Shown here piece after piece: positions 4,452-63,471 of a stretch of DNA of 64,000 nucleotides. Source of the DNA: a virus. The notes under the pieces were generated by a model that made no database searches, was not told where the DNA came from, and was given only the letters and a program-made list of their open reading frames with translations. The stretch is taken from the IMG/VR virus record IMGVR_UViG_3300045988_182866; one strand, 5' to 3'. The translations under genes and the position numbers were made by a program. The number at the start of each line of letters is the position of its first letter. Position 1 is the first letter of the stretch.

Positions 4452-4478
4452 AAAAAAGGCATTCGAATTGAATTCGAA
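4452..4478. terminator. palindromic hairpin terminator
   Basis: ggcattcgaatt/gaattcgaatgcc perfect palindrome followed by T-run on minus strand, 3' of ORF 4507..4932. Confidence 0.6.
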
Positions 4479-4506
4479 TGCCTTTTACAATATTAGATAA
4501 AATACT

Positions 4507-4932
4507 TTATTCCAAATAATCGGAAAGTGCTTTAACAAACTCTTTACCGATTTGAGTTATCGGTTCATTATAAAACATTTTACGATCGGCCCTAACAATA
4601 ATTTGCTTCTTTTTGGGCAAAATAGCTCCAGGCTCTTCTTGCCCGGCATAATCTTCAAGATATTGTCCGATACTCAAATTAGCAAGAAGAATATCATCGA
4701 TAAGTTCAAAAACATATTGAAAATCATCTTTACCAATTACATCACTAACTTCCCAATCTTCATCGTCATTGTATAAAAGAATAAAGAGTTTATCACGATG
4801 TTCAGGACTTTCGTAAACAGCCATATAAACCGGCATATCCTCATCAAGCGGTGCATCTACCCAGTTTTCAGGATTACGAGGGTCGGAAGCATCCGATTGT
4901 TCTCGCACCCTATCAATACTCCAATTTTCCAT
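4507..4932 (-). CDS. strongly acidic hypothetical protein
   Basis: 141 aa, D/E-rich. Confidence 0.5.
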   Translation of the reverse strand: MENWSIDRVREQSDASDPRNPENWVDAPLDEDMPVYMAVYESPEHRDKLFILLYNDDEDWEVSDVIGKDDFQYVFELIDDILLANLSIGQYLEDYAGQEEPGAILPKKKQIIVRADRKMFYNEPITQIGKEFVKALSDYLE

Positions 4933-4970: not shown

Positions 4971-6371
4971 TTAAACCCAGTTTCTTCGAACTATTTCACG
5001 AATTTCAGAAAAAGTTTGTTCTCGAATCAGTTTGCCATTCTCAAAAACTAGATCTAAAATATCTCTTTCAGAAGTTTCTTGAATAGTTTGATATTTATTT
5101 ATTTCGTTAAGAATCAAAGACAAACGCCCCTTCTTAGAAGCTTTTGACATATCCAATGGACGTTTTTGAACATCATGCCATTTATCGTCATACTTCTGAG
5201 CGGAACATTTAAAAGCAAACCGGCAAGTATCTCGGTTAATTTTTTGAAGAAGTCCTCCACCCATGCCAAAAGCCCAGTTTTCCGATGACCAGCCGTTTTT
5301 TGCAGATTCTTCAAGAATACGATCCATATCGCTAATATTGATACCATCACCCCAAAGAGCCCGAACTTGATCCGGAAGAACTTTGAATCCTTTATTGTTT
5401 ACAGTATATCCGAAATATTGGCCGAGAAGTTCCAGTACCTGTTGAGATACTTTAATAATATCACCAGAATCAGGTCTGAATACAATTCGTCCATTTCGAT
5501 TGAGAATCAAATCCTTAAATTTTGTTCCGCAAACTTCAATGAATCGTTCATAATTGTATGAATCGATTACCATTGCCATAATTCCGTCAGGATTCTTATT
5601 CAGCAGTTCTTCAACTACGCCAAACTCTCCTTCTTCTCCTCGAGAAGTCATGATGGAATGTTCAGTAGCCCTGATGCTATATCCGAACATTTTATCAATA
5701 TTCTCATTATAGTATCGGGAAGGAACAAGCAAAGCTGGAACGGTATCAGTCCCATTAAAATTCAGCAAATGGGCAGAGCCGCCCAGCATAGAAGCTTCAA
5801 AATTTTCAGTTCCCCGGCATCCAAAATCGTGAAGTTGAAAATTGAGAATATTATTAAAATCTTCTCCTTCTTTATCTGAGGTAGTTGTCAGCCAATTAGT
5901 TAACATTAACTTCCCATAATAAGAAGTTGTGGCGACTGTAATCGGGTACCATATATGAGTAAGAATAGTTTCGGCAAAATTAGTTAAGAAAGGAACTTTA
6001 TCGTCAGTATTTTCAATAGTCATTAGAACATTGGAAATATCAATTAGGGAACCTTCTTTAACGGCCTTAATCCTAAGAGGAAGATGACCATTATATTTTT
6101 TAAGAATATATTCCCAACCTTCTTTATTAAAGATGCCAGGACCAATATGCCGAGTAATAAGATAATCAGCTTCATTAATCAGTTCCTGAGTAATAACAGG
6201 TCCTACAAAATATTTCTTAAGGATTGCCTGAAGGCCATAAAAAACAGTCTTAGGAAACTTAGAACCTTTACGGGCTTCGAAATAAGAATATACTCCTTGA
6301 GTATTGTTAGGTAACATCTTGTCATGAGTATATTTGTAAGAATCAGCAGAAAATAAAATATTATCGGTCAT
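4971..6371 (-). CDS. nadV: nicotinamide phosphoribosyltransferase (NAMPT/NadV)
   Basis: 466 aa; matches NAMPT family by length and conserved blocks (KKYNGHLPLRIKAVKEGS, RGTENFEASMLGG, GMGGGLLQ). Confidence 0.9.
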   Translation of the reverse strand: MTDNILFSADSYKYTHDKMLPNNTQGVYSYFEARKGSKFPKTVFYGLQAILKKYFVGPVITQELINEADYLITRHIGPGIFNKEGWEYILKKYNGHLPLRIKAVKEGSLIDISNVLMTIENTDDKVPFLTNFAETILTHIWYPITVATTSYYGKLMLTNWLTTTSDKEGEDFNNILNFQLHDFGCRGTENFEASMLGGSAHLLNFNGTDTVPALLVPSRYYNENIDKMFGYSIRATEHSIMTSRGEEGEFGVVEELLNKNPDGIMAMVIDSYNYERFIEVCGTKFKDLILNRNGRIVFRPDSGDIIKVSQQVLELLGQYFGYTVNNKGFKVLPDQVRALWGDGINISDMDRILEESAKNGWSSENWAFGMGGGLLQKINRDTCRFAFKCSAQKYDDKWHDVQKRPLDMSKASKKGRLSLILNEINKYQTIQETSERDILDLVFENGKLIREQTFSEIREIVRRNWV

Positions 6372-6375
6372 CGAA

Positions 6376-7281
6376 TTAAAGAGAAGAAATTAAAGTTTTG
6401 AATAATTGGCGATGAGCAGGATTAATGTCATCGATAGAAAGATCTTTGATATTGCAAAGATGCAACTCAGCAATATCATCATAAGGAGCAGGATTACCCG
6501 AAACCCGGGTCATCAAAAACAAAGTAGTCATTACTTGTTCTACCTCTCCAAAATATCGCCAATCCTTAACTTTAAAAGATCCGATATATTTTTCAATCTT
6601 GCATTTCAGACCAGTTTCCTCTTGTGCTTCCCGAATTGCGGCTTCTTCATAAGAATTATCTTTAGGATCAATAAATCCGCCCGGAAACCTCAATGTTTTT
6701 TCACCGGGTTTTTTGGCAAGATAAATCTTTGAATAAGAATCATCTGTAAAGATTGCACAATCTACCGTGGGATAATAATAAGTCCAATTATTCTGAGTTG
6801 CATAGATACATCCTCGACGGAAATCTTCAGAAGTACCAATATTCTTTTTCAGTTCTTCTCGCAACTTTGTTCCAGATAATGTCAATTTTTGCTGGTATTC
6901 ATAAGTCTCAAATTGACCGGTATAATGTTCAATAAAACTGTCTCTGGACCCATAAAGAATAACATCTGAATTACCATTAGTAATCGCCAAGATTTGTTTA
7001 TCAAGGTCAGAAGACCATTCTTCATCGGACATTACATCTGTTTTATAACAGATTTCAAACTTACCCGGATATTCTTCTTCAATCATCCTTTTCCTGGAAA
7101 CATAAGGAAGAGGATTATTCTTTGTACACCGAACATCTCTCGGAGGATTACCGAGAACAAGAATGTTCATGTAATGATTCTGACTAAGGACAAAATCTAA
7201 AATTTCTTTATGTCCTTCCGTTAATTTATGTACTTGAAACCGGCCAACTATTACGCCGATTGCGTTTTGTTTATTTGTCAT
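6376..7281 (-). CDS. natV: bifunctional NMN adenylyltransferase / Nudix ADP-ribose pyrophosphatase (NadM-Nudix, NatV-like)
   Basis: N-terminal cytidylyltransferase-type GRFQ..H..GH motif; C-terminal Nudix box GGFIDPKDNSYEEAAIREAQEETGL. Confidence 0.85.
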   Translation of the reverse strand: MTNKQNAIGVIVGRFQVHKLTEGHKEILDFVLSQNHYMNILVLGNPPRDVRCTKNNPLPYVSRKRMIEEEYPGKFEICYKTDVMSDEEWSSDLDKQILAITNGNSDVILYGSRDSFIEHYTGQFETYEYQQKLTLSGTKLREELKKNIGTSEDFRRGCIYATQNNWTYYYPTVDCAIFTDDSYSKIYLAKKPGEKTLRFPGGFIDPKDNSYEEAAIREAQEETGLKCKIEKYIGSFKVKDWRYFGEVEQVMTTLFLMTRVSGNPAPYDDIAELHLCNIKDLSIDDINPAHRQLFKTLISSL

Positions 7282-7335
7282 GTTTTTTGTTTGGTTAATT
7301 AAGGTTCAACTATTACAACCTTAAGTTAGTATTAT

Positions 7336-7786: not shown

Positions 7787-8800
7787 TCAAATATTGGAAT
7801 AATAATCCATTGACTTTGCCTTATAATGAGTACCGTCTTCAAACTCAATAACAACACCTTCTCCATCTTCTTTTGGAGCTTGTTGGAATTGAAGCAGGAG
7901 ATCTTTAGTTATAGTCATTTCTCCCAGAATAGGAACAGTTTCCAATTCTAAACCTAAAACTTCAGTGCACCACAAGAAATGGCCCTGAGTTCCATATAAC
8001 CCCCATTTCCAAATTGTATTATCTTTTGAGGGATGTATTGTTTTGAAAAGATTAAACTTTAAAGGACCTTTAGAATCTTTGTTAACTTTATTTCCATTAA
8101 CTCCATGCCCGGTAATTTCTCCTCGAACAATGATCGTTTCATTATATTTCTTTACCCACTTTTCCAAAGCAGGTCTTACAATTTCATGTCCGACTTTTGT
8201 ATATCGATTAAAACAATCATTTTTATAAGTGAAACGTCTTCCGCAACAATAAAATTCTCCGCCGGCAGTTAAAATATAAGTTGCGGAACAACCATCCATC
8301 TTTCGGGTCACAAGAGCTTTTTGTCCTAAAAGAAGCTGATGTTCAGGAATATTTTCCCAATTCTCTTCATCAGTCTTTGTAAGATTAAGGGGAAGATTAG
8401 GAAAAGCAACCGCAAGATCATTAGGAAGAGGAGGGCTATAATGGCCGATACCTAAGTCAATTGCTACTTGCTCAGGCTTTATATCAAGTATTAGATCCTC
8501 ATCATGAATACTATATTCAGATGCCAAATCTTTAAGCTTTACAAAAATACCATTGGAATATTCTCCTCTAAGCTTAACTGTTCGAACTCGATTTTCTTTT
8601 CCGGTATAATTTAAGAAAGGTTCAGCCCAAACTTTATTATTGGGAAGTTTTGCATCCGGACAAATAAACAATCCAATTTCATTTTCAATAAAACTACCCT
8701 TTGGTACAACAACGGGCCAATTGTTTACTAGCCCCAAATCAAGCTTATCCGCATTAGGGTGAGGATGAATATTTGTAATTCTAGAAAAAAGACAATCCAT
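7787..8800 (-). CDS. RNA ligase with N-terminal tRNA-binding-type OB domain (Rnl5-like)
   Basis: N-terminal HPHPNADKLDLG resembles EMAP/MetRS/CsaA tRNA-binding domain; central KMDG (KxDG) nucleotidyltransferase lysine motif. Confidence 0.6.
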   Translation of the reverse strand: MDCLFSRITNIHPHPNADKLDLGLVNNWPVVVPKGSFIENEIGLFICPDAKLPNNKVWAEPFLNYTGKENRVRTVKLRGEYSNGIFVKLKDLASEYSIHDEDLILDIKPEQVAIDLGIGHYSPPLPNDLAVAFPNLPLNLTKTDEENWENIPEHQLLLGQKALVTRKMDGCSATYILTAGGEFYCCGRRFTYKNDCFNRYTKVGHEIVRPALEKWVKKYNETIIVRGEITGHGVNGNKVNKDSKGPLKFNLFKTIHPSKDNTIWKWGLYGTQGHFLWCTEVLGLELETVPILGEMTITKDLLLQFQQAPKEDGEGVVIEFEDGTHYKAKSMDYYSNI

Positions 8801-9227: not shown

Positions 9228-10712
9228 TTAAATGGTGATTACTTTATAACGTTCAGAATTAATAACAGACTCCATAAATTGTTCAGGATTTTTGCCCTGA
9301 AGAATCAGTTCAAACATTCCGGGCTTGCAGCCGTTAATAATAATTGCTCCTTCATCATTCTTAGTGACAGGCTGGTTGGCCTTGTAATCGGCAGCAACAT
9401 TCCAGTAAACAAGCTTAGGACATTCATATTCTGAATTCCTAAACACTTTCTTGATGGAATTCATTACATGCTCCGGCCATCTTTGCTGGTCAAACTGCAT
9501 GTCAGAAATAACAACAATTACCTCAGGCATTTCTTCCTTAGGAATATGATGCTTAATTGCAGTGTTAAGAACCAATTCAAATACGGCATAAAGGTTAGTA
9601 CTTAAACCTTGACGAGGATTATCCTCAATATTGGTAACCTTTCGCTTAATTTTATCTTCTGGATTTAAATTAACCAGATAAGGTTCAGAGGAAAAGGTAA
9701 TGAACTTATTCTGAAATACTCCCATATTACGTTCGGCAATATAAAGGCCGAGAGAAATAGAACAGTTCATTGGAAGTTCTTCATGACAAGTCATGGATCC
9801 AGAAACATCAACTACTGCAAGCCAGTTTGCATGGTCTTCCTCTCCAAAATAATTCGGAAGGGCTTTCCACATTTGATCCATCAATGCCAATTCCTTATCA
9901 TCATAAGTATGACGAACTTTTCGTACAATCTCATAAGGATAAAGAGTTTTAGAATTTACTTTAGCTTTACCATTTGCAAGTGAATTAAGATATTCTGTAT
10001 ATCTGTCATTATCATTTCGAGCAAATGCTTTTCGATACTTTAAAGCAGCTTGGCCCGGAACTTGGGAATAATCAAATTCATACTCTTTCTTAGAAAGATG
10101 AGACTCAATAATATTGATGGCCTTACGAAGACGAGAAAGCATTTTTCGATAAGATTTTTCATCCATTCCAAATACTTCTCGACGAATCTTATTTGCAATC
10201 GCCTTAGTATGTTTAGAAGACGTATTGCAAGAAGGAAGCCATTTCGCACAAAGAGAAATATCAGAACTACCTTTATCAAGCTTTTGAATATCTTCATTAA
10301 TTTGAAATTTAATAATTTCAGCAATATGATTACTGATACTTCTTTCGATTCCGTAAAGAGCAATCAAATCATCCCAACGTCCGTAAAACGGAATAAAACG
10401 AAGAACTTTACAAATAGTTTTAGGATCAATATCAATAAGTTCTTTCATTCCTTCTCGAAAGATATTTCTTTCACCTTGTCCGCCATTACCTCGAATATCC
10501 CGAAAATAAAAAAGAATACGAATACAAAAAAGCTTATCTTCAGAGTATGCCTTTCGAACAAGAGATTTCAAACGCTTAGAATCTGAGCGACAAGATGCAC
10601 CAGAAGCAAATAAATCAAGAAGACTGTCAAGAGTAGACTTGTATGCTGGACAACCGTTTTCAGTTTCTGTACTATTATTTTCCACTGTCATTGCTTTAAA
10701 AAGTTCACTCAT
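9228..10712 (-). CDS. von Willebrand factor A domain protein, Ro60/TROVE-like architecture
   Basis: C-terminal vWA with MIDAS motif VVDVSGSM.., helical N-terminal ~300 aa with YFRDIRGNGGQGER; overall layout as in Ro60/Rsr. Confidence 0.6.
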   Translation of the reverse strand: MSELFKAMTVENNSTETENGCPAYKSTLDSLLDLFASGASCRSDSKRLKSLVRKAYSEDKLFCIRILFYFRDIRGNGGQGERNIFREGMKELIDIDPKTICKVLRFIPFYGRWDDLIALYGIERSISNHIAEIIKFQINEDIQKLDKGSSDISLCAKWLPSCNTSSKHTKAIANKIRREVFGMDEKSYRKMLSRLRKAINIIESHLSKKEYEFDYSQVPGQAALKYRKAFARNDNDRYTEYLNSLANGKAKVNSKTLYPYEIVRKVRHTYDDKELALMDQMWKALPNYFGEEDHANWLAVVDVSGSMTCHEELPMNCSISLGLYIAERNMGVFQNKFITFSSEPYLVNLNPEDKIKRKVTNIEDNPRQGLSTNLYAVFELVLNTAIKHHIPKEEMPEVIVVISDMQFDQQRWPEHVMNSIKKVFRNSEYECPKLVYWNVAADYKANQPVTKNDEGAIIINGCKPGMFELILQGKNPEQFMESVINSERYKVITI

Positions 10713-11142: not shown

Positions 11143-11180
11143 GGAAACAACCACGTAGAGGTATATTACCGTATGTTTCC
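11143..11180 (-). ncRNA. conserved tRNA 3'-trailer hairpin element (ACCACGTRGAGG family)
   Basis: stem GGAAACA/TGTTTCC abutting tRNA-Glu 3' end; homologous to element at 16471..16531. Confidence 0.4.
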
Positions 11181-11253
11181 TATTGCCATCGAGATTCGAA
11201 CTCGAGATAGCCGGTAGAAAGCCGGCTGTGATAAACCACTTCACTATGGCAAC
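11181..11253 (-). tRNA. tRNA-Glu (anticodon TTC)
   Basis: cloverleaf read by eye: acceptor GTTGCCA/TGGCAAT, D-arm GTGA-AGTGGTTTA-TCAC, anticodon loop CTTTCTA, T-arm TCGAG-TTCGAAT-CTCGA; no encoded CCA. Confidence 0.8.
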
Positions 11254-11401
11254 ATATCAAGACTCAGCGGATTTGTTTTAAAAGAACAATGCTTAATGAT
11301 TGCTGTTTGAGTCTTTCAAAGAATTTAAATTTTCTTATTAGAGAATTGTTGGAGTATTGGGCATTTACAATCCAATTTTTATAGCAACTGGCCTACCAGT
11401 C

Positions 11402-11620
11402 TCAGGATTTCTTACGAACAAGAAACTTACGCGATTCTCGGAGAGTTTTAAACTCATTCATCCTTTGCCGATTAAAATTGAGACGACGAAGACCCTCATC
11501 ATACTGCTCCTCAAACGATTTTTCACTCTTAATTTCTTCCAGATTCTTAATCGTTTTTACGTCAAGCATCGTTCCAATTCGCATAATATTTCCTTTCGTA
11601 TTTTCGTTATTACTTAACAA
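11402..11620 (-). CDS. small charged hypothetical protein (TTG or internal ATG start)
   Basis: 72-aa ORF with protein-like composition. Confidence 0.3.
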   Translation of the reverse strand: MLSNNENTKGNIMRIGTMLDVKTIKNLEEIKSEKSFEEQYDEGLRRLNFNRQRMNEFKTLRESRKFLVRKKS

Positions 11621-11765
11621 CTTGTTACATTTTTATTATATTTTTTACCTTTATTTTTAAAGGTGATTTGAAATAATGGAGCAGACAAGTAAGATTTGCA
11701 CTTACAACTTTCTACTGGAATGTAGAATGACTTACTATTAAATCGATTGTCGCTTTTAAAAACTT

Positions 11766-11793
11766 GGTGCACCTACCGGGATTCGAACCCGGA
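11766..11793 (-). ncRNA. tRNA 3'-half-like fragment (T-arm + acceptor 3' strand + encoded CCA)
   Basis: minus strand reads CCGGG-TTCGAAT-CCCGG-TAGGTGC-A-CCA; no matching 5' acceptor/D/anticodon arms upstream. Confidence 0.35.
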
Positions 11794-12072
11794 CGTCTTT
11801 AAGACAATGGATTTTCATACTACTATTAGTTTCCTAATCCAATATTATTTTTTATATTGTTGTAGTCTGGACTATATCTTCATCTGTTCTAGATGTAACG
11901 TACATAGTCTCTGAACCTTCCTCATATTATTTCTAACTTAGAGGCTCGGCTGCTGATTGACCAATTTCCTATAGTTTTAAAACTTTCGCATCCGTTGTTT
12001 CCAACCATGTTGTAGTCATAGGAACTTTAAGGTTATCCCAGCAATTCTCGTTATTCTCATTCTTAGATCCCT

Positions 12073-12561
12073 CTAAGATGACTCCTTTGTTTTGTTTTTA
12101 GAACGATATGTATCAGTTTGAGCATGACAATTTGGACAAATCATTTCTAAATTTTCTAATCTATGGTCATAACTTACACCATTTTTATGGTGCAATTCCA
12201 TATTAAGAGGTTTTCCATTCCATTCAGTTATACCACATTTATCACATTTATTTTCTTTATAACCATAACGTAATAAATATAGTTTTACTTTATATGTTTG
12301 ATATGAAGGTCTTTTACCTTCTAAAAGATCTTTTAAATCATTTTCCGTAAAATAATTTGGATTTGACTTTTTAAGACCTTTAGCCCCTTGATTAGGTTTA
12401 TAACAATTAAACTTTTCAGCCCAACGTTTAAATGTTGAAAACTGCATATTCAATGTTATACATGCTTGTCGCATTGTTAAGCTCTCATTGACAACTTTTA
12501 TAAAGTATTCTTTATCGATCTTTTTCATGTTAAAGTTATTTAACATGAAATTGACAAACAC
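12073..12561 (-). CDS. HNH homing endonuclease
   Basis: CDKCGITEW..ELHHKNG..N..ICPNCH HNH/zinc motif, N-terminal HTH-like region; embedded in tRNA island. Confidence 0.8.
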   Translation of the reverse strand: MFVNFMLNNFNMKKIDKEYFIKVVNESLTMRQACITLNMQFSTFKRWAEKFNCYKPNQGAKGLKKSNPNYFTENDLKDLLEGKRPSYQTYKVKLYLLRYGYKENKCDKCGITEWNGKPLNMELHHKNGVSYDHRLENLEMICPNCHAQTDTYRSKNKTKESS

Positions 12562-12787
12562 TTTAAATAAAGTCCACAGCGTCTACCTATTCCGCCACAA
12601 GTGCTTGTGCGCTAGATACATTAATTATTAAGAATTAATTCTTAATACCTGGAATCGAACCAGGAATATCCATGTATAAATTATTGCTGTATGTATCTTA
12701 CATAAAACTAGACTCATTTTTTATTATATACACCAATAATATTTTAATTTGCTGTACGAGTCTATAAAATCTTTATAACTAACTAAG

Positions 12788-12880
12788 CACCAAAGGTTTG
12801 ACTCGAACAAGCAACTAACAACTAACAACTAACGAGTAACGAGTTAACAGCTTGCCCCTCTACTATTGAGGTACTTTGGT
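12788..12880 (-). tRNA. tRNA-like gene, possibly tRNA-Asn(GTT) with ~27-nt repeat-expanded variable arm
   Basis: acceptor ACCAAAG/CTTTGGT, D-arm CCTC-AATAGTA-GAGG, anticodon loop CTGTTAA, T-arm GCTTG-TTCGAGT-CAAAC (one mismatch); variable region built of GTTAGTT heptamer repeats. Confidence 0.35.
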
Positions 12881-12890
12881 ATTCAATTAA

Positions 12891-12942
12891 TTATCTGATT
12901 TGAGGAAATCTTTATCTTTATTAATTTCCTCAAATCAGATAA
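12891..12942. repeat. 19-bp inverted repeat / long hairpin
   Basis: ttatctgatttgaggaaat ... atttcctcaaatcagataa with 14-nt loop. Confidence 0.6.
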
Positions 12943-13238
12943 CTAATCAAAACTAGTTATTTGATTTATTACTTTGCATCAAAACAATTTTAATTCAATT
13001 ATCCGTCCTTCACAGGATTGATTTTTTTTTTGAATATTTCATTCGAAAAATTAGTTTCGCTCTTGGCTACTTATGCTCATCGCCGCGTAAAGGCTTTTTC
13101 GATGATGAACTGGTTGCAGCGGGCGGACATGCTCCGCTTAAGAGATGCTTATGAGACATCTGAGGCTACTAATACCTCTTTACTTTCCTGCTGCGATTTT
13201 CTGAGCAGTTTAAAATCTTGCTCAGGATTCTGAATTAT

Positions 13239-13358
13239 TTACTTACCTTTCTGAACCTTAATTACAGGAGGCTGATTAACAGTTTGTTGCTGTTGCTGAG
13301 AGCAAGAAGCTGTCAAACAAATTACAGAAGCGGTAAGAAGAATTGCAATGTTTTTCAT
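13239..13358 (-). CDS. small lipoprotein (39 aa)
   Basis: MKNIAILLTASVICLTASCS signal peptide with lipobox-like LTASC; below 60-aa ORF track cutoff. Confidence 0.4.
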   Translation of the reverse strand: MKNIAILLTASVICLTASCSQQQQQTVNQPPVIKVQKGK

Positions 13359-13401
13359 GATTTTATAATATTTTTTATCTTATTTTTTGTAGGTGCTCAA
13401 A

Positions 13402-13656
13402 TCAAATATATGAGTTTTGATATTTAATTGAATTGCGGAATTTTTTATCAGGATATTCTTTAATAAATCCTTCAGCAATTTTATCATCCCATATAGGTCT
13501 TTGACTAAATTTAGCACGAATATTGGGTTGATCCTTGGCCTTATATTCCCGATACCATTTTATGTTGTTTCGAGTTTTATAAATCCAAAATACTTTTCTG
13601 CTGTCAAGTTTATAACAAAACTTGTCCGGTATATTTTTTCTATATGATCTGCTCAT
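13402..13656 (-). CDS. basic hypothetical protein
   Basis: 84 aa, K/R/Y-rich. Confidence 0.4.
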   Translation of the reverse strand: MSRSYRKNIPDKFCYKLDSRKVFWIYKTRNNIKWYREYKAKDQPNIRAKFSQRPIWDDKIAEGFIKEYPDKKFRNSIKYQNSYI

Positions 13657-13674
13657 AGCTTTCTAGGATTGTAC

Positions 13675-14801
13675 CTAGAAAGCATTACGATAATTATTGT
13701 TCATATTAAAGATGTCTGCAATATTATTATCAACACTAGTTGCTTGAACACACTCAAGCAAAATATTTTCTTTCTCTACTTTATATACTAAACGATCAAT
13801 TCCATTTTCAATGAGATCATTCGGACCAAATACGATATGTTTCCATTCATAGTCATCATTAGAACCTTTTAACCGTTTAGCAATTCGAAGCGGATTAGTA
13901 GTAAACAAATTAATCGGTTCAGGACTAATATCGGTTTTAGTTATATATTCAAACTTATTGCCTGCCTGGGGAATAACTTTAATTCTATAATTGCAAGGTC
14001 TAAATTCAATGTTAATATCATTGATTATCTTATCTAGAGTTGTTTCGTAAAGATTACATTCTTCAGTAAGAGCCTGGAGAACATCAAAACTAAAGTTAAG
14101 AATAGATTTTGAAGTTTTTATAAATTGAGAAATATTAGTATCAATTTGTACTTTCAAATTATCTTTAAGATATTCTTGAATTACTTCGGAAGAAAGTGAA
14201 TCAAATTTAAAATGATAAAAGATTCTGCCAGGTCGGGAAAGGAAAAATTGATTAATCTTATAAAGATTATTACAAGAAAAAAGATAAAGATTCTTATTTT
14301 CATTTATCCCGTCCAAAAGACCGAGCAATCCAAATTGGTTTTCTTTTCCTGAATCCATTTCGCAATCATCTGTATTTTCATAGCTGAATTTATCAAATTC
14401 ATCAAAAATACAAACAACTTTTTCGTCAATCTTTTTAATAAAATCAGAAAACTTATTTAGGTTAATTTCTGATTAACAAGGATAACAGGAATATTATCCT
14501 CAATAGCTCTTTCAATACAAAGCTTAATCAAAAGGCTTTTTCCAGTTCCTTTCAGTCCGGACAATAGCACGCCGAGATTTTTATCCCTAGATTCATAAGT
14601 CTTAAAAATCCTTTGAACCTTATTATTCAAATCTCCATAAATCTTCCTATTGTTGAAAATAAAATTATGTTCTTTTAAGAACATTTGTCCCTGAGGACCT
14701 GCATTTATTGTATAAATTTTAGCCGGGAGATTCTTTAAAATAGTAATACAGTTTTCAGAAAGAACATCAACTGTATCATTGTTAATGATATAATTAGACA
14801 T
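13675..14801 (-). CDS. AAA+ ATPase, interrupted by a frameshift near 14455-14470
   Basis: Walker A GLKGTGKS in ORF 14457..14801; Walker B CIFDEFDK about 53 aa later but in the -1/+1 frame continuing into ORF 13675..14358. Confidence 0.55.
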
Positions 14802-15219
14802 TATATTTTAGATAATAAGAATAATAAAAAGATTTTTGGAATAAACAACCGCCTATTGCAGTTGAATGAGATACAAGCTCATAACCTTTTTTAATTAGAA
14901 AAGAAATAACTTCATTTAATATTTCCTCAAATATTTCTTTATCATGCTCTCTTTCATTTCGAAGAGTAAAGAATAAAAATTTAGGCCGTATAACATATTC
15001 CGGTAAAGAATAATCCTCAATAATAAAATAACCGGTTTTAGGCAATTCTTTAGTATAGCGATCTATTTTTAGATCAATTTGATCAAGAATATATTTGAGA
15101 CAATTAGACTTTTTAATTCTATATTTCTCAATATCAAGAGCTACTTTAAATCGTTTCTTTTCTTCTTTAAGCCTTTGTTTAAGAAAAGTTTTATATTCAT
15201 TTTTGTTAAACCAGCTCAT
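14794..15219 (-). CDS. hypothetical protein
   Basis: 141-aa ORF. Confidence 0.45.
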   Translation of the reverse strand: MSWFNKNEYKTFLKQRLKEEKKRFKVALDIEKYRIKKSNCLKYILDQIDLKIDRYTKELPKTGYFIIEDYSLPEYVIRPKFLFFTLRNEREHDKEIFEEILNEVISFLIKKGYELVSHSTAIGGCLFQKSFYYSYYLKYNV

Positions 15220-15523
15220 TGATTGATGCTTCTTTATAAAAGTTAGAAAGGATAAGAGTTATAATGAAAGGTTCTCCTTTACTCAATTCAATGTCATATT
15301 CAATGCCATTATTATCTTCTTCCCAAATAATATGAAGCTCATCGTTAAACACAACTGTTTCAATATTTTTAATGAGCAGCATATTTTTTACCTTTTGAGT
15401 AAGGTCAAACATTGATCCATCAAATTCAATGATTTTTCCTCCTATAAGGCAATCTTTAATAGTATCTTCATTGCCATGAGATACATGAAGATAAAATGGA
15501 ACTGAAACTGCAAAATTACTCAT
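15206..15523 (-). CDS. hypothetical protein
   Basis: 105-aa ORF. Confidence 0.45.
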   Translation of the reverse strand: MSNFAVSVPFYLHVSHGNEDTIKDCLIGGKIIEFDGSMFDLTQKVKNMLLIKNIETVVFNDELHIIWEEDNNGIEYDIELSKGEPFIITLILSNFYKEASINELV

Positions 15524-15576
15524 AAAAATATTATGAGATAAATCTTATAACTTAAAGGTGTTTAAGAAATAAATGG

Positions 15577-15648
15577 AAGAGTTGCTGGGGTACGATCCCA
15601 GAATAGGAGAGTCAAAGTCTCCTGTGTTGCCAATTACACTACAACTCT
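15577..15648 (-). tRNA. tRNA-Gln (anticodon TTG)
   Basis: perfect 7-bp acceptor AGAGTTG/CAACTCT, D-arm GTGT-AATTGGCA-ACAC, anticodon arm GGAGA-CTTTGAC-TCTCC, T-arm CTGGG-ATCGTAC-CCCAG (atypical T-loop). Confidence 0.5.
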
Positions 15649-15657
15649 ATTTGTTGG

Positions 15658-15729
15658 AGGCTTCAATCGGTTATGCTCCGATGTTACCGGGTTACAAATC
15701 CGGGGTTTTACTGATTAAACTATAAAGCC
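15658..15729 (-). tRNA. tRNA candidate, anticodon TGT (Thr), non-canonical D and T loops
   Basis: cloverleaf with acceptor GGCTTTA/TGAAGCC, anticodon loop TTTGTAA, T-stem ATCGG/CCGAT; packed between two tRNAs with 9- and 5-nt spacers. Confidence 0.4.
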
Positions 15730-15734
15730 GTTGG

Positions 15735-15805
15735 TACCTTGTATCGAAATCGAATCGATGACTTCTGAGTGGAAATCAGATGTTTTACCACTAAACTAAC
15801 AAGGC
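15735..15805 (-). tRNA. tRNA-Gly (anticodon TCC)
   Basis: acceptor GCCTTGT, D-arm GTTT-AGTGGTA-AAAC, anticodon arm TCTGA-TTTCCAC-TCAGA, T-arm ATCGA-TTCGATT-TCGAT. Confidence 0.7.
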
Positions 15806-15827
15806 ATTGGCAAGACACATTCTTTAT

Positions 15828-15882
15828 CTCTACCAATTGAGCTAGTATTCTCTTCTCAAGAATACTTGGGATTCGAACCCAA
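15828..15882 (-). ncRNA. rearranged tRNA-like element (T-arm, closed acceptor hairpin, D-arm-like motif in permuted order)
   Basis: minus strand reads TTGGG-TTCGAAT-CCCAA, GTATTCT-tgagaag-AGAATAC, TA-GCTCAATTGGTAGAG; no anticodon arm. Confidence 0.3.
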
Positions 15883-16015
15883 AACCGTTCATTTTTTAGA
15901 TGACTAAGAATAATTGCTGTTTGTGTCTTTTTTATGAGAAGACTTAGAGATATTAGTTTCATCCTTCCGGATTACTTGTGTTCATTACCACGTAAAGGTT
16001 TCTCTATCAATGAAC

Positions 16016-16087
16016 TCGGGTGCCAGAGGGTCGAACTCTGTTAATCATGCTCCCAAAGCATGCCCATAACCGTCCTGGCCACACCCG
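16016..16087 (-). tRNA. tRNA-Pro (anticodon TGG)
   Basis: acceptor CGGGTGT/GCACCCG, anticodon arm CATGC-TTTGGGA-GCATG, T-arm CAGAG-TTCGACC-CTCTG. Confidence 0.6.
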
Positions 16088-16470
16088 TTATACCGGTATT
16101 GTATGTCAGCTTCCTCAGAAGTACCGGGCTCCTATAGCTTCGTTAATCAGCTAAACGATTATTTCTTAACCCATCGTTCTAATGGTAATCAGTTCCAGCT
16201 CATTCTCTAACCACTAAACTGATAAGTCGTTGGTTAGGTAATTCTTTGTGACTAGCAAAGAAACACTATGTTCGATCTACAATTTTACTCATCACTATCG
16301 AGTCAACGGACTAATAGGCTAAGAGTGGGATCTTCGTATTTTTAATATGTCTATTTATGCGATTTTCGGAAAACCGTCCTATTTCCAAGGATAGACTTTA
16401 ATTCAACAGGCAATCATGTTTCCATGGGAAATTCAACCATTGAATCTTATAAGATTTTATCTTTAAAGAT

Positions 16471-16531
16471 GTAAGACTTAGCCAAAGTATTATCTTTGTT
16501 GCCCGGAATAAACCACGTGGAGGTGTCTTAC
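16471..16531 (-). ncRNA. conserved tRNA 3'-trailer hairpin element (ACCACGTGGAGG family)
   Basis: stem GTAAGAC/GTCTTAC enclosing CAAAGTATTATCTTTG hairpin and ACCACGTGGAGG; about 55 nt homologous to 11120..11180. Confidence 0.4.
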
Positions 16532-16539
16532 TTTATTCC

Positions 16540-16614
16540 TAGTCGTACTGGGAATCGAACCCAGAACCTCTCGCTTATAAGGCAAGTGCTCTCACCAATG
16601 TGAGCTATACGACA
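16540..16614 (-). tRNA. tRNA-Ile (anticodon TAT), 1-72 mismatch
   Basis: D-arm GCTC-ACATTGGTGA-GAGC, anticodon arm CTTGC-CTTATAA-GCGAG, T-arm CTGGG-TTCGATT-CCCAG, acceptor TGTCGTA/TACGACT. Confidence 0.55.
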
Positions 16615-16621
16615 ATTTTGG

Positions 16622-16704
16622 TTCATTGGGAGGGATTCGAACCCTCGAAATCTAAAGATGCCAAATTAAAAGTCTGGTGGTTTTAACCTCTTACCTACCA
16701 ATGA
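16622..16704 (-). tRNA. tRNA-Lys(TTT)-like with 14-nt variable arm
   Basis: acceptor TCATTGG/CCAATGA, anticodon arm CCAGA-CTTTTAA-TTTGG, T-arm GAGGG-TTCGAAT-CCCTC; unusually long variable region for Lys. Confidence 0.4.
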
Positions 16705-16821: not shown

Positions 16822-17667
16822 TCAGATGGTGCCTGCAAAAAGCCTTCTTCGAATTGACATTAAATCTTTTCCAAGATTATTTTCTCCAATCCCATTACAA
16901 ACTCCAAAATAAGTATCTCCCCAGGTATTTTCTTCAATAAGAATTGATTCTCCTGTTCTCATTAATAGAGTTTTAAATGGTTCTTGCTTGAATTTTTCTT
17001 CACAAACTGCATACATAACCATATTTTTAATTCTATCCCAATCTTTTCGAAGGGGAACAGTTTGACCTAATTTCCTAGCTTCTTTCGGAGACAATCCAAT
17101 AAATTGGGCACGAATACCAAGATCTTCAGTCTTAAGAGCTTGATAAGCAGCTTCAGTAGAATTAAAAACCATTCCTTCCGCTATTATTTTAACTTCGGCA
17201 AAATTAGAAAGAAATTTAAAAATGCCTCTAAAATCAGCAATTATACGAGGATAAGAAAAGAAATATCCATTTGTTCCTTTAAAATTATTGGAATCAACAA
17301 TATCCCAATATTTGTTATCATTAAAATTATAAACAAAAGCTTTTCCAAACAAAATTGGAGGAGGCTGATGAGAAATATTAGGCCTCCAGGCTTCCTGAAG
17401 AGTGACAGAATCAGCCCTATCTCTATAATAATAAGAAACAGAATTATCCTTTAAATCGGAAGGAATCCATGAACCAGCGGCAAGTTTATGCGGACTTAAC
17501 CTATGAATATTCCCATTTTTAATTAAAAGTTCTGGACAATCATTATAATGGCATAAAACATTTGATAAGAATTCCATATGATCAGAAGTTCTCATATCAA
17601 ATAGAAACAATTCTAACCAAACTTCTTTAAGACTATCATAGATAAAAAGTTGAGTAGGATAATTCAT
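16822..17667 (-). CDS. NADAR (YbiA-like, DUF1768) domain protein with N-terminal extension
   Basis: C-terminal half LSNFAEV..FNSTEAAYQALK..E..WGDTYFGVCNGIGENNLGKDLMSIRRRL matches NADAR family conserved blocks. Confidence 0.75.
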   Translation of the reverse strand: MNYPTQLFIYDSLKEVWLELFLFDMRTSDHMEFLSNVLCHYNDCPELLIKNGNIHRLSPHKLAAGSWIPSDLKDNSVSYYYRDRADSVTLQEAWRPNISHQPPPILFGKAFVYNFNDNKYWDIVDSNNFKGTNGYFFSYPRIIADFRGIFKFLSNFAEVKIIAEGMVFNSTEAAYQALKTEDLGIRAQFIGLSPKEARKLGQTVPLRKDWDRIKNMVMYAVCEEKFKQEPFKTLLMRTGESILIEENTWGDTYFGVCNGIGENNLGKDLMSIRRRLFAGTI

Positions 17668-18555: not shown

Positions 18556-19668
18556 TTAGATGTTCATTAATTTATTATACACCTTGAAACCAATAGGTGT
18601 TTTGCGATAAATCATCCACAGTAGAGTTTGATTCAAGCTAGGATAAGTTTTCAATAACTGAACTACTTCATGGGCATCTTCATAAATATTGATTTCTTTT
18701 AACCTTTTTTGACATTCTTTATAAGGAAGAACTACGAATTGTTCAAATTTTTTACAAACCTCAATCATATTAGGTTTAATATATTCTGCGATCTCATAGT
18801 CAAATTGTTTTTCTACAAACTCATAAAACTGCTTTTGAACTTGTTCAGCTTCAAAAGTTTCCGGATTGAGATAACCATGTTCATACATCGCTTCAGCTAC
18901 TTTGAGTATAGAACTTAAGGTAGATTTCATCCGATGCAAAGTACAATACCAATCTGATTTTATCTTTTTAAGAAGCTGTCCATTATTAAAATAAACAACA
19001 ACTCCTTCAGCCGAAGTCCAGGATTTAATCTTTTCATTTAAATCAATGTAAGATTTAATATCCGGATATTCATATTGCCTTGGCCGTTTAAATTTATATG
19101 TATGAGCAATCGAGTTTAATTCTTTCTGAGTGGCATAAGAGTAATCTTTATGATTAACCTTTCCAATCAGGAATAAATCAGGATTATCATACTTGAGAAC
19201 AATCTGATTCGTTGGGGTTACCCATTCAAAAATCAAAGAAAAATCTGCAGTTTCGTAAGATTTAAAATATAATTCAATCTTGTACTGTTCCAATAAAGGA
19301 TTAAGTTCGGAAGCATTTTTCTGTTGATATGCAGAAATAGTACCTCTGGTTCGAACAATAAGTTTTCCTTTATATTTTGAAACAATCAGACATGAACCAT
19401 CTAACTTTTCGGTTAGAACAAAATCTTTATCATAGTATGGTGCAACTGGTTCAAAAGCTGGCTGTTCATTAAAATTCATGAACTTTCTAAATCCCAATGA
19501 AACTGGGAATCCATCAGAAACCCGCCAAATAGAAGAACGATAAATCTTATTTAAATCAGTAAATTTGGCAGAAATCAAAGGCGTAATCAGAACACAAAGG
19601 TCTCCAGCAATTTCTACTTCTTTAAAAGAAAATTCTTCTTCGGATTCTTTAAACCACTGATACTTCAT
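18556..19668 (-). CDS. rnlA: RNA ligase 1 (T4 RnlA-like tRNA repair ligase)
   Basis: 370 aa; KxDG motif LTEKLDGS, FEWVTPTNQIVLKYD, KKIKSDWYCTLHRMKS; these blocks and length match what I recall of T4 Rnl1 (374 aa). Confidence 0.85.
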   Translation of the reverse strand: MKYQWFKESEEEFSFKEVEIAGDLCVLITPLISAKFTDLNKIYRSSIWRVSDGFPVSLGFRKFMNFNEQPAFEPVAPYYDKDFVLTEKLDGSCLIVSKYKGKLIVRTRGTISAYQQKNASELNPLLEQYKIELYFKSYETADFSLIFEWVTPTNQIVLKYDNPDLFLIGKVNHKDYSYATQKELNSIAHTYKFKRPRQYEYPDIKSYIDLNEKIKSWTSAEGVVVYFNNGQLLKKIKSDWYCTLHRMKSTLSSILKVAEAMYEHGYLNPETFEAEQVQKQFYEFVEKQFDYEIAEYIKPNMIEVCKKFEQFVVLPYKECQKRLKEINIYEDAHEVVQLLKTYPSLNQTLLWMIYRKTPIGFKVYNKLMNI

Positions 19669-22309: not shown

Positions 22310-23763
22310 AGGCTCTGTCCTACCACAGTGTTGATTTTTAAGGAATCTTTCATGCTGTAAGACTTAATGTGTTGATGTTACCATCAAGACAATGGGTGAA
22401 GCCCCACCCTCTACACCTTGGTCGGAGACCGACATCGGGTGCTTCTTTTCTATATCGATTTTAATTGGATTAAACATTGATTTGTGAGGTGAGAATGTTT
22501 TGCCGAGACCTCTACGCAGTATGTTAGCGGCACCATTGATGTCGGCGTTTAACATGCATCCAACAGAGCTTACAAACAACCCACGTTTCTTTCTCTTACC
22601 CATATATTCATCATAGTGACAAATATCCTCGTCGTCAAGGAATGAGCATTTGGAGGTGTGAGACTCATTGTGAGTTTCCACATTGATACCGGCTTCACTT
22701 GCTTTGTAAGACAACATCCAAATGAGTTGAGAATGTGGAATGCTCACAAAGTTCTGATTGTTTCGTTTACCAATGTTTACTTCCTGCTTCCATCCATCAT
22801 TATGACCGATAAAGCAGTTTCCGATTTTGTTTTCTACCATCAAATCAACCACTGAACGACTAGCCTTGTGCATATAATCTTTTGTTTTGTTATTGCGCTT
22901 TCTAGTAAGTCTCCTGAGTTTCTTTGATGTATTCATATCTCTCTCAGCCAACTTAGATACAATTTCAGCGTAAGTCTTGTTATAATATTGGTTGATGCTC
23001 TTTAATGGTCTGCCATTAACAAGGTGGGATATAGACCCCTCGTTTGAAGTTACAGCCATTAAGTTATCAATACCAATATCTATCCCTACTGCTTTGTTGT
23101 AGTCTAAGTCAACCGGAGAAATCTTTGTTTTGTAGAAGATTTGTATCTCTATACATCCTTGCTTTGGCACAAGACGAAGCTCTTGCAAGGAGGTGAGCTT
23201 CGTTTTAATTGGAAGCTTAAAGTCCTTGCGAATGTTTATCGTTCCGTCTTTCTGGATTTTCGCGTCATTATAAGAGAAGGCAACGGAAAATAACTTATCG
23301 CCATTTGCTTCTTTCTTATACCTGGGCATCCTTGGTTTCCCAGTGAATTTCTGTGGATTCTTCTTGTATGAGTTAAGAGACCTGAACCAAGTAGAGAATG
23401 ATTCGGCACACTTCTTCACAGTTTGTGCTGCTTCGTTATCCTTTAACAACGATCTAAAATCTTTGTCGTTTAACTTCCTCATTCTGGTGATTAGGTCAAA
23501 CACAGAGATAAATTTCTCTTTCCTGATTATGTCTGTGTATTCAGGAATGTTCTCGTGTTTGCCACTAAACGCTTGGCGGAGAATGTATAACGTTCTATTG
23601 TAAAGAGATGTATTCAGAGAGCATTCTTGCACAGCCCAACCATAGAAGGATGTCCCTTCTTTTATCTGGTGCGTTTCAACTCTGATTGCCTCTTCTTGCA
23701 TTCGCTGTTGTATATATTATACCATAGGTTTATCAGAAATCAACACTGTGGTAGGACAGAGCC
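22310..23763 (-). mobile_element. TnpB-only element bounded by perfect 28-bp terminal inverted repeats
   Basis: 22310-22337 is the exact reverse complement of 23736-23763 (AAATCAACACTGTGGTAGGACAGAGCCT); the TnpB ORF lies between. Confidence 0.6.
22364..23701 (-). CDS. tnpB: TnpB (IS200/IS605 OrfB, RuvC-like OMEGA nuclease)
   Basis: 445 aa; C-terminal zinc finger C..C..C..C and RuvC-III motif NADINGAANI. Confidence 0.85.
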   Translation of the reverse strand: MQEEAIRVETHQIKEGTSFYGWAVQECSLNTSLYNRTLYILRQAFSGKHENIPEYTDIIRKEKFISVFDLITRMRKLNDKDFRSLLKDNEAAQTVKKCAESFSTWFRSLNSYKKNPQKFTGKPRMPRYKKEANGDKLFSVAFSYNDAKIQKDGTINIRKDFKLPIKTKLTSLQELRLVPKQGCIEIQIFYKTKISPVDLDYNKAVGIDIGIDNLMAVTSNEGSISHLVNGRPLKSINQYYNKTYAEIVSKLAERDMNTSKKLRRLTRKRNNKTKDYMHKASRSVVDLMVENKIGNCFIGHNDGWKQEVNIGKRNNQNFVSIPHSQLIWMLSYKASEAGINVETHNESHTSKCSFLDDEDICHYDEYMGKRKKRGLFVSSVGCMLNADINGAANILRRGLGKTFSPHKSMFNPIKIDIEKKHPMSVSDQGVEGGASPIVLMVTSTH

Positions 23764-63468: not shown

Positions 63469-63471
63469 AAC

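Follow-up and report, generated by a model that had tools for sequence, protein, structure and literature searches.

A NARP2-type pair of NAD+ salvage genes with a divergent second enzyme: a candidate counter-defence operon in a widespread human-gut phage

The question raised by this locus is whether two adjacent phage genes encode a complete route from nicotinamide to NAD+ and, if they do, whether that route serves the phage against the defences of its host. The genes lie in a 64-kb window, the whole stretch of DNA that was analysed, which is part of the genome of a human-gut phage of ~205 kb (about 201-206 kb). This phage is very widespread and without close cultured relative; a megablast search of a 3.4 kb region against GenBank phages returned nothing. 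NARP2 of Vibrio phage KVP40 consists of NadV (Nampt) and NatV (Nmnat/Nudix) (Lee et al. 2017; Osterman et al. 2024), and it enables a phage to get past defence systems that deplete NAD+ (Osterman et al. 2024). We put the probability at roughly three in four that the pair described here is an operon of the same type, which would rebuild NAD+ from nicotinamide in two steps and act in counter-defence during infection. The computed basis for this reading consists of the enzyme families, their conserved catalytic motifs, the predicted fold and a conserved operon linkage.

No new mechanism is proposed. The pairing of nadM with nadV, its occurrence in large phages and the anti-defence role of NARP2 are all published, and the value of the present analysis lies in cataloguing, that is, in placing a NARP2-type operon in a phage so widespread in the human gut. 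The novelty lies in a NatV subfamily that is both compact and divergent and that can be traced to bacterial salvage operons under NrtR control, in Bacteroidota and elsewhere.

The operon and its Nampt

The upstream gene, encoding a 301-aa NMN adenylyltransferase-Nudix protein, is followed on the same strand by that of a 466-aa Nampt/NadV (Table 1). Their separation by only 4 nt is an operon arrangement, and so short a spacer makes translational coupling of the two genes likely. Beyond Nampt lies a 141-aa acidic open reading frame, probably co-transcribed with the NAD+ pair, and then a hairpin whose 15-bp stem is followed by a T run and which likely marks the end of the transcription unit. Neither the 141-aa frame nor a 136-aa one that also flanks the pair matches any Pfam or PHROG family. 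Both were considered as conserved parts of the module and rejected, as they are not kept beside the pair in 77 other viral loci; a tblastn search with the 141-aa frame gave no match in 77 related viral loci. An Rfam scan detected no regulatory RNA near the operon, tRNAs being the sole matches.

Table 1. Features of the operon and of two further genes in the window
Feature	Position	Strand	Basis
301-aa NMN adenylyltransferase-Nudix protein	6376..7281	(-)	Open reading frame, exact coordinates
T21-E-G-H24, (T/H)xGH nucleotidyltransferase signature	7210..7221	(-)	64-sequence family alignment
S136-G-T-K-L-R141, ISxTxxR-type second ATP-binding motif of NMN adenylyltransferases	6859..6876	(-)	Family alignment
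Nudix box G202..L225 (GFIDPKDNSYEEAAIREAQEETGL)	6607..6678	(-)	Family alignment
Intergenic spacer, 4 nt (TAA-ttcg-ATG), from upstream stop to Nampt ATG	6372..6375	(-)	Direct sequence reading
466-aa Nampt/NadV	4971..6371	(-)	Open reading frame, exact coordinates
141-aa acidic open reading frame, between Nampt and hairpin	4507..4932	(-)	Open reading frame
Terminator-like hairpin, 15-bp stem then T run	4454..4486	(-)	Consensus scan
NADAR-domain open reading frame	16822..17667	(-)	Pfam, 66.7 bits (gathering score 35.1)
Macro-domain open reading frame	43246..43710	(-)	Pfam, 45.3 bits (gathering score 22)

At the level of sequence comparison, the assignment of the 466-aa protein as a Nampt with a predicted intact active site is established. 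It scores 542.5 bits against the NCBIfam model NF006629, for which the cut-off is 405, bears the Pfam domains NAMPT_N and NAPRTase, and matches PHROG 448 (E 1.8e-148) as well as structures of human NAMPT (E ~1e-110; 2gvg, E 1.4e-109; 370 bits). Conserved relative to 2gvg are Y18, F193, R196, D219, H247, R311 and D313, together with G353-D354-G355, G383-G385, R392, K400, K415 and K423; every human NAMPT active-site residue that was checked, including those binding PRPP and nicotinamide, is kept.

Nampt is homologous to the Namat of NARP1 (Adps + Namat), a system that likewise rebuilds NAD+ in phage-infected cells but does so from ADPR-PP, the product of a PRPS-like Adps, and the 2019 phage records found by tblastn with the 466-aa protein include enzymes of both kinds. 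The protein might on this account be a NARP1-type Namat, joining nicotinamide to ADPR-pyrophosphate, but we consider this extremely improbable. Identity to the Adps-linked Namat of phage wV8 and Staphylococcus phage SAML-229 is 27-32% (122-227 bits), compared with 38-40% (~300 bits) to Nmnat-linked phage Nampts, and human NAMPT is matched more strongly still. By these comparisons the enzyme groups with the Nmnat-linked Nampts, apart from the Adps-linked Namat of NARP1. Its partner, moreover, is a predicted Nmnat, and no PRPS-like Adps gene lies adjacent to it or elsewhere in the 64-kb window. The last observation agrees with Osterman et al. 2024, who report no phage that carries both NARP1 and NARP2. 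Pfam scans of nearly all open reading frames, some of them concatenated, across these 64 kb of the ~201-206 kb genome detected no PRPS/Adps, PnuC, NadR, PncA or ADP-ribosyltransferases. The pair also differs from NARP3 (PnuC-like transporter and NadR-like enzyme; Sci Adv 2026), another phage NAD+ restoration system ending in an NMN adenylyltransferase step, in which the pathway starts from imported nicotinamide riboside.

The NMN adenylyltransferase-Nudix protein

Most source annotations, like Pfam, label the 301-aa protein NUDIX only (residues 172-296, 60.4 bits), and the Pfam family CTP_transf_like finds no match in it. The best of the NadM-Nudix models (NF003791, among the NCBIfam PRK05379 models) gives 44.9 bits, far under its cut-off of 409, and in single-sequence searches the N-terminal domain matches NadM-type NMN adenylyltransferases weakly (PDB 2qjo, E 1.4e-9). 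A profile built from 64 homologues, by contrast, matches the NadM-Nudix proteins 2qjo (E 5.8e-21) and 2qjt (E 1.2e-20) across both domains, and also the archaeal NMNAT 1f9a. A lack of NAMPT or NMNAT profile matches, named in the first-pass annotation as grounds for rejection, is not what is seen; the cut-off of the curated NadM-Nudix model is far from reached. The E-values rule out chance for the gene identifications.

The predicted structure points in the same direction. The protein divides into a predicted NMN adenylyltransferase domain (~aa 1-165) and a Nudix hydrolase domain (~aa 166-301). Its AlphaFold2 model has a pLDDT of 92.6, and the six best Foldseek matches in the PDB are NadM-Nudix chains (2qjo, 2qjt, 2r5w), aligned over the full length with E-values of 6e-17 to 7e-15. 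The TM score is only ~0.42, because the orientation of the domains differs between the model and NadM-Nudix. Among profile-profile comparisons, hhalign gives 99.6% (E 6e-25) with the canonical NadM-Nudix protein of Synechococcus phage BUCT-ZZ01 and 97.9% probability (E 3e-13, ~22% identity) with KVP40 NatV, a protein characterised by experiment, whereas BLASTP against NatV aligns the Nudix box only.

The motifs of both domains can be located, each with its own departures from the norm. The (T/H)xGH signature stands two residues farther from GRFQ, as read from the HMMER alignment to 2qjo, so that GRFQVHKLTEGH in the 301-aa protein corresponds to GRFQPFHLGH in NadM, and the first His of the NadM signature is replaced by Thr (T21). 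Of the 64 homologues, 33 have T and 27 have H at position 21, while R14, F15 and H24 are each present in 63. Within the nucleotidyltransferase superfamily TxGH is a regular form of this motif, found for example in phosphopantetheine adenylyltransferase. The second ATP-binding motif aligns with the equivalent NatT..R segment of 2qjt and is likewise well kept (S136 in 57/64, G137 in 55/64, T138 in 50/64, R141 in 64/64), and D82 and W89, conserved across the 64 homologues, align with the D..W of NadM. The Nudix box keeps its RExxEE core, but Asp stands in place of the first Glu, and an extra residue in the spacer turns the canonical Gx5Ex7REUxEExGU spacing into Gx5Dx8RE, with a one-residue gap relative to 2qjo; G201, G202, E221 and E222 are invariant, with R217 in 61/64 and E218 in 62/64. 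Loss of catalytic residues, which would have undermined the original proposal, is found in neither the Nampt active site nor the Nudix core. Some 40-60 residues present between the two domains of NadM are missing from the 301-aa protein.

A skeptical reader could take the weak scores against NadM models, the NUDIX-only labels and the altered signature loop, with T for H and a two-residue insertion, to mean that the protein is a Nudix hydrolase alone, acting on ADP-ribose, NADH or a signalling nucleotide, with a degenerate or regulatory N-terminal domain and NAD+ completed by host NadD or NadR. We regard this as very unlikely. Homologues of only ~40% identity show little or no variation at R14, F15, H24, D82, W89, G111 and R141, which is unexpected for a decayed domain; the T of the signature is a normal superfamily variant, as noted above, and the predicted fold is both confident and NadM-like. 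Profile, fold and motifs together identify the N-terminal domain as a predicted NadM-type NMN adenylyltransferase, and the protein shows the features of a NadM-Nudix, namely (H/T)xGH with ISxTxxR, an REUxEE core and a two-domain fold like that of 2qjo and 2qjt. The assignment holds because profiles, AlphaFold model and motifs agree, and because the synteny with Nampt and the NrtR gene of Arcicella, described below, bear it out. The protein, a relative of NadM-Nudix/NatV that is both compact and divergent, belongs to a distinct subfamily outside the curated equivalog. Its substrate preference could differ from that of NadM-Nudix, given the weak scores, the changed signature loop, the Nudix spacing and the lost interdomain residues.

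How closely, then, does the pair resemble KVP40 NARP2? Both enzyme families, the domain architectures and the predicted chemistry, from nicotinamide and PRPP to NMN and on to NAD+, are the same, and the Nampt is 38% identical to KVP40-type NadV. The phage genome encodes both a Nampt-clade enzyme and, by remote homology, an Nmnat. In other respects the two differ: the Nmnat/Nudix protein is a remote homologue of NatV (~22% identity; 301 aa vs 341 aa), with its shifted (T/H)xGH and x8 Nudix box spacing, and natV and nadV are widely separated in genomes of the KVP40 type. The pairing described as KVP40-like in the first-pass annotation therefore stands as regards enzyme families, whereas the tight operon resembles the cyanobacterial nadM-nadV. 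The NrtR-regulated slr0787/slr0788 of Synechocystis (PDB 2qjo) share the nadM-then-nadV order, the fused NMNAT-Nudix and the fold, but slr0787 is only ~20% identical to the 301-aa protein, and the present pair belongs to a phage and has no NrtR in its vicinity. The nadM-nadV pairing itself has been known since 2008. We conclude that the pair is a NARP2-type module, a further candidate for a described type of phage counter-defence, in which the second enzyme is unusually divergent. The first-pass claim of a route from nicotinamide through NMN to NAD+ is upheld by the very strong NAMPT profile match, the motifs, the fold and the correspondence to NARP2.

Proposed role during infection

From their sequences, we infer the following activities for the two enzymes. 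Nampt would convert nicotinamide and PRPP to NMN, from which the HIGH-type nucleotidyltransferase domain at the N terminus of the 301-aa protein would form NAD+ with ATP. The C-terminal Nudix domain would cleave ADP-ribose (most likely) or NAD(H) (possibly) to yield AMP and ribose-5-phosphate, the latter being returned to PRPP by host PRPP synthetase. During infection, NAD+ would in this way be kept available while TIR, SIR2 or SEFIR effectors of the host cleave it to nicotinamide and ADP-ribose. That the pair has such an anti-defence role is suggested by analogy with KVP40.

The benefit to the phage may instead be metabolic alone. The salvage genes of KVP40 were originally proposed, reportedly, to raise the NAD(P) supply for phage metabolism, and the present pair could be a host-derived nadM-nadV operon acting as a general booster of NAD(P) for nucleotide and redox metabolism in the long infection of a large-genome phage. 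NrtR-controlled copies of this operon are found on bacterial chromosomes, and among the products of the window are thymidylate synthase, DHFR and thioredoxin, all dependent on NADPH-linked redox chemistry. According to Osterman et al., NARP2 increases NAD+ even in cells that lack a defence system. We nevertheless think a metabolic role without counter-defence unlikely: KVP40 NARP2 overcame NAD+-depleting defences, the window's phage DNA ligase is an ATP-dependent one and so creates no demand for NAD+, and the genome is rich in genes of counter-defence type, namely NADAR, Macro and RNA repair. The two roles are in any case compatible rather than mutually exclusive.

The genomic context fits counter-defence, since alongside the NADAR and Macro open reading frames the window encodes two RNA ligases, RlaP and tRNAs. 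The NADAR and Macro genes, first pointed out as signs of a broader investment in NAD/ADP-ribose metabolism, are real, both scoring above the Pfam gathering thresholds. Judged by their domains, however, they are better explained as putative removers of ADP-ribose from DNA or protein, of the NADAR/AdfN and Macro types, for example anti-DarTG factors, than as part of NAD+ synthesis.

Distribution and natural variants

Functional linkage of the 301-aa protein to Nampt is strongly indicated by gene neighbourhood. At 72 of 80 IMG/VR loci a NAMPT-family gene lies within 6 kb of the homologue, and at 62 it is the very next gene downstream, with the same orientation; no other neighbour gene is conserved at these viral loci. 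In one relative, a Gad2-like gene flanks the NAD+ pair. The corresponding figures for GTDB genomes are 63/80 (nearby) and 56/80 (immediately downstream). Bacterial chromosomes, of Bacteroidota and others, thus carry the same operon as part of NrtR-controlled salvage, so that the module originates from ordinary salvage metabolism. Directly upstream of the same pair in Arcicella aurantiaca is a gene for an NrtR regulator; the nadM-nadV of Synechocystis is also regulated by NrtR, which responds to ADP-ribose.

Catalogued phages rarely carry the divergent NatV subfamily, whereas uncultured ones commonly do. Only 5 of 50,697 catalogued phage records are found by tblastn with the 301-aa protein at E<=1e-5, but at least 297 IMG/VR contigs carry the subfamily, as does a human-gut phage of very high prevalence. 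An Nmnat partner can, it appears, belong to a divergent subfamily that standard models call 'Nudix hydrolase' only, and this bears on estimates of prevalence, the published figure for NAD+ reconstitution among phages being about 1.1%. We suggest, tentatively and at less than even odds, that the compact NatV-like subfamily, recognizable by a shifted (T/H)xGH, a shorter stretch between the domains and a Gx5Dx8RE Nudix box, is a large branch of NARP2 largely missed by surveys seeded with KVP40 NatV. If that is so, NAD+ reconstitution would be considerably commoner than ~1.1% in uncultured large phages, including probable Bacteroidota gut phages, and rare disrupted alleles could reflect the metabolic cost reported for NARP2.

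Such alleles exist. The many products of 264, 236 and 203 aa in a cluster listing raised the suspicion that the Nmnat-Nudix gene is disrupted in most variants of the phage, and this was rejected: the gene is intact in 10/10 contigs of >200 kb found through a neighbouring gene and in 7/8 contigs found by a DNA pattern. As these samples are unbiased, disruption is a minority state and the first impression a bias of the listing. The few natural variants that do carry disrupted copies indicate that the NAD+ module is not essential.

The two enzymes

The 466-aa protein is a predicted nicotinamide phosphoribosyltransferase (Nampt), in agreement with the first-pass annotation, which had placed it in the NAMPT family. 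It scores 542.5 bits against NCBIfam NF006629 (curated cut-off 405), contains both Pfam domains, NAMPT_N and NAPRTase, matches PHROG 448 (E 1.8e-148) and can be aligned over its whole length with human NAMPT structures (E about 1e-110). Residues kept in the alignment with human 2gvg are Tyr18, Phe193, Arg196, Asp219, His247, Arg311, Asp313, Gly353-Asp354-Gly355, Gly383-385, Arg392, Lys400, Lys415 and Lys423; in the human enzyme these make up the nicotinamide and PRPP sites, and the histidine that is autophosphorylated is among them. Because Nampt and Namat, the partner of Adps in the NARP1 pathway, are homologues, the protein was compared with both kinds. Identity to Nmnat-linked phage Nampts (KVP40-type phi-pp2 NadV, D479, BUCT-ZZ01 and Tunturi_5) is 38-40%, at about 300 bits, whereas that to the Adps-linked enzymes of Escherichia phage wV8 and Staphylococcus phage SAML-229 is 27-32%, at 122-227 bits; these two are 43% identical to each other and less so to any Nmnat-linked Nampt. 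The 466-aa protein is therefore assigned as Nampt, and Namat is rejected. Some viral relatives, such as L014 (6896..8647) and L043 (9434..11095), pair Nmnat-Nudix with a longer NAMPT-family protein of 553-583 aa that has just 24-29% identity to Nampt and to Namat alike and appears to represent a third clade.

The NadM-Nudix identity proposed for the 301-aa protein stands on profile, fold and motif comparisons, but not on the curated models: no NCBIfam NadM-Nudix model scores above 45 bits, where the cut-offs are near 400. PHROG family 395 ('cytidyltransferase') gives 35.5 bits, the only Pfam domain is NUDIX (residues 172-296), and BLASTP finds no similarity to KVP40 NatV outside the Nudix box. 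By tblastn (E<=1e-5), this variant is found in 5 of 50,697 phage records, namely four 'huge phage' assemblies and Tunturiibacter phage Tunturi_5; the canonical NatV type is found in 485 of 50,697, near the published 1.1%. A profile of 64 homologues matches NadM-Nudix crystal structures across both domains (2qjo, E 5.8e-21; 2qjt, E 1.2e-20), followed by archaeal NMN adenylyltransferases, and in hhalign the probability is 99.6% for a canonical phage NadM-Nudix (E 6e-25, 285 columns) and 97.9% for KVP40 NatV (E 3e-13, 274 columns, 22% identity). The AlphaFold2 model is confident (pLDDT 92.6), and its top six Foldseek matches in the PDB are NadM-Nudix chains aligned over their full length. Together with the conserved residues, these comparisons and the predicted fold argue that the Nmnat/Nudix assignment holds.

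Conservation was read among the 64 sequences, which share just ~40% identity. GRFQ is followed by (T/H)xGH, where position 21 is Thr in 33/64 and His in 27/64 and H24 is kept in 63/64; Asp82 and Trp89, which align with the D..W of NadM, are invariant, YGSRDSF is among the diagnostic motifs, and SGTxxR is conserved, with R141 in all 64. The Nudix domain retains GG, R217, E218, E221 and E222, so that the catalytic residues of the Nudix box, whose loss would have told against the first-pass annotation, are intact. The subfamily is nevertheless divergent from NadM/NatV: in the window's protein two extra residues separate the signature from GRFQ, Thr takes the place of His at its first position, the Nudix box has the form Gx5Dx8RE in place of Gx5Ex7RE, about 40-60 interdomain residues are missing, and the length is 301 aa as against 340-360 aa.

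A two-gene module and its proposed role

By sequence reading, 4 nt separate the stop codon of the Nmnat/Nudix gene from the Nampt ATG. A strong terminator-like hairpin lies 3' of the small ORF that follows, and a transcription unit of Nmnat/Nudix, Nampt and the 141-aa ORF is therefore likely. A small inverted repeat, perfectly conserved among near-identical contigs, is present in the 54-nt leader that separates the upstream ORF from the start of Nmnat-Nudix.

Among the best 80 of 297 IMG/VR contigs encoding a relative of the 301-aa protein, a NAMPT-family gene lies no more than 6 kb away in 72 and immediately downstream on the same strand in 62, and at the viral loci compared no other gene of the window is kept next to the pair; the two genes thus behave as a unit of their own. 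Phages are not the only carriers of the subfamily: GTDB genomes hold 137 relatives, mostly in Bacteroidota, Ignavibacteria/Kapaibacteria and CPR, and for the best 80 of these a NAMPT-family gene lies within 4 kb in 63 and immediately downstream in 56. Arcicella aurantiaca DSM 22214, an isolate, carries the pair among genes that look chromosomal, and directly upstream of it stands a gene with NrtR winged-helix and Nudix domains. NrtR is an ADP-ribose-responsive repressor that binds the nadM-nadV operator in Synechocystis, and its presence here lends independent support to the pair being a genuine NAD+ salvage operon borrowed by phages. The gene order at this locus (L112, 3124..7432) is NrtR, Nmnat-Nudix, Nampt, AbiH. 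At viral locus L004 (6001..12287) the pair is followed by TPM_phosphatase, Gad2-like and DruA-like genes; at L033, which has no Nampt nearby, two standalone Nudix genes and a weak isochorismatase-like match flank Nmnat-Nudix.

The pathway itself is already published. The nadM-nadV 'salvage II' route has been described in bacteria, the NadV/NatV pair has been characterised in KVP40 (Lee et al. 2017), and, under the name NARP2, the pair has been shown to overcome NAD+-depleting defence systems; the co-occurrence of NadV, NadM, NADAR and Macro in viruses has also been surveyed. The likeness to KVP40-type phages drawn in the first-pass annotation extends to the two-enzyme pathway but not to the arrangement: natV and nadV lie apart in those genomes and are adjacent in the window, as they are in Tunturi_5, and almost adjacent in BUCT-ZZ01, with a single small ORF between them. 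That the pair carries out the predicted two-step conversion of nicotinamide to NAD+ is very probable. We give a probability of about 0.75 to the reading as a whole, in which an NAD+-rebuilding operon would keep NAD+ available against NAD+-cleaving host effectors; counter-defence as the main selected role is favoured only modestly.

Disrupted alleles occur in near-identical contigs, with lesions at the 5' end of the Nmnat-Nudix gene, which is otherwise identical to that of the window. L172 lacks 1 nt in codon 5/6 and has a stop at R462 of Nampt, L173 lacks 20 nt including the ATG and has a +1 frameshift in Nampt, and in L174 codon 5 (Q5) has become a stop (CAA>TAA); in other cluster members the gene is called at 236 and 203 aa. 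In unbiased sampling it is intact in 10/10 contigs of >200 kb and 7/8 pattern-matched contigs, and the disrupted alleles are therefore a small minority, either a polymorphism or in part assembly errors.

The phage and its other genes

Features of the window discussed in the text
Feature	Coordinates	Strand	Remarks
Terminator-like hairpin	4486..4454	-	3' of small ORF
Small ORF, 141 aa	4507..4932	-	no assigned function
Nampt, 466 aa	4971..6371	-	coordinates exactly as first annotated
Nmnat/Nudix, 301 aa	6376..7281	-	coordinates exactly as first annotated
5' lesions	7260..7295	-	in L172, L173, L174
Inverted repeat	7301..7322	-	AAGGTT N10 AACCTT
RNA-repair-type genes	7787..8800, 9228..10712, 18556..19668, 47212..48258		near NAD+ operon
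tRNA genes	11180..16704
NADAR ORF	16822..17667	-	domain residues 152-276, after 150-residue extension
TnpB-like gene	22364..23701	-	OrfB_IS605, Cas12f1-like TNB
TnpB-like gene	30897..32069	+	OrfB_IS605, Cas12f1-like TNB
GroEL-type chaperonin	36811..38415	-
SPFH/Band-7 protein	40146..41195	-
PspA/IM30-like protein	42257..42931	-	weak
Macro ORF	43246..43710	-	also matches PHROG 335
tRNA-Asp call	43453..43540		ARAGORN; inside Macro ORF
Large terminase	61083..63951	-	apparently interrupted

Both the NADAR and the Macro domain were recovered where they had been reported; the 150-residue N-terminal extension of the NADAR protein has no family match. The current literature credits phage NADAR proteins (AdfN) with reversing DarT1 DNA ADP-ribosylation, and phage macrodomains with DarG-like roles. 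By analogy, the two genes indicate that the broader NAD/ADP-ribose investment suggested earlier is directed against ADP-ribose-based host attack and not towards NAD+ synthesis. A link to the Nudix domain is possible, as its expected substrate, ADP-ribose, would be a product of both reactions. The tRNA-Asp call is probably a false positive, as Rfam gives no support.

The window is phage DNA. It encodes a T4-type large terminase and a GroEL-like chaperonin, as well as thymidylate synthase, DHFR and an ATP-dependent DNA ligase; there are also two RNA ligases, RlaP, two TnpB-like genes and 7-8 tRNAs. An adjoining protein of 136 aa recurs unchanged in 3,215 blocks of the public assembly index, among them many contigs of 201-206 kb, one labelled human gut metagenome; the window is part of an uncultured phage of ~201-206 kb that is very common across public metagenomes. 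Megablast against GenBank phages gives no match, and the terminase has only about 33% identity to any catalogued phage. A Shine-Dalgarno core occurs in the 20 nt upstream of none of 63 genes, as against 11% in background sequence, which, together with the leaning of the Nmnat/Nudix subfamily towards Bacteroidota, suggests a Bacteroidota host.

The RNA-repair-type set comprises Rnl2/PHA02142-like and T4 Rnl1-like RNA ligases, an RlaP-family nucleotidyltransferase, the tRNA genes and a DUF2828/DUF7788 protein (PHROG 850, 'RNA-binding protein'), and is consistent with the countering of host anticodon nucleases. One TnpB-like gene is opposite in strand to nearly all other genes. In the terminase region, a 645-aa ORF begins with a Hint/intein-like segment ending ...SHN, then has a Terminase_6N match, and shares 8 nt, in another frame, with a 151-aa ORF that ends near ...GKCLSPS; upstream there is a ResIII-like segment. 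The apparent interruption could be due to an intein or to some other insertion.
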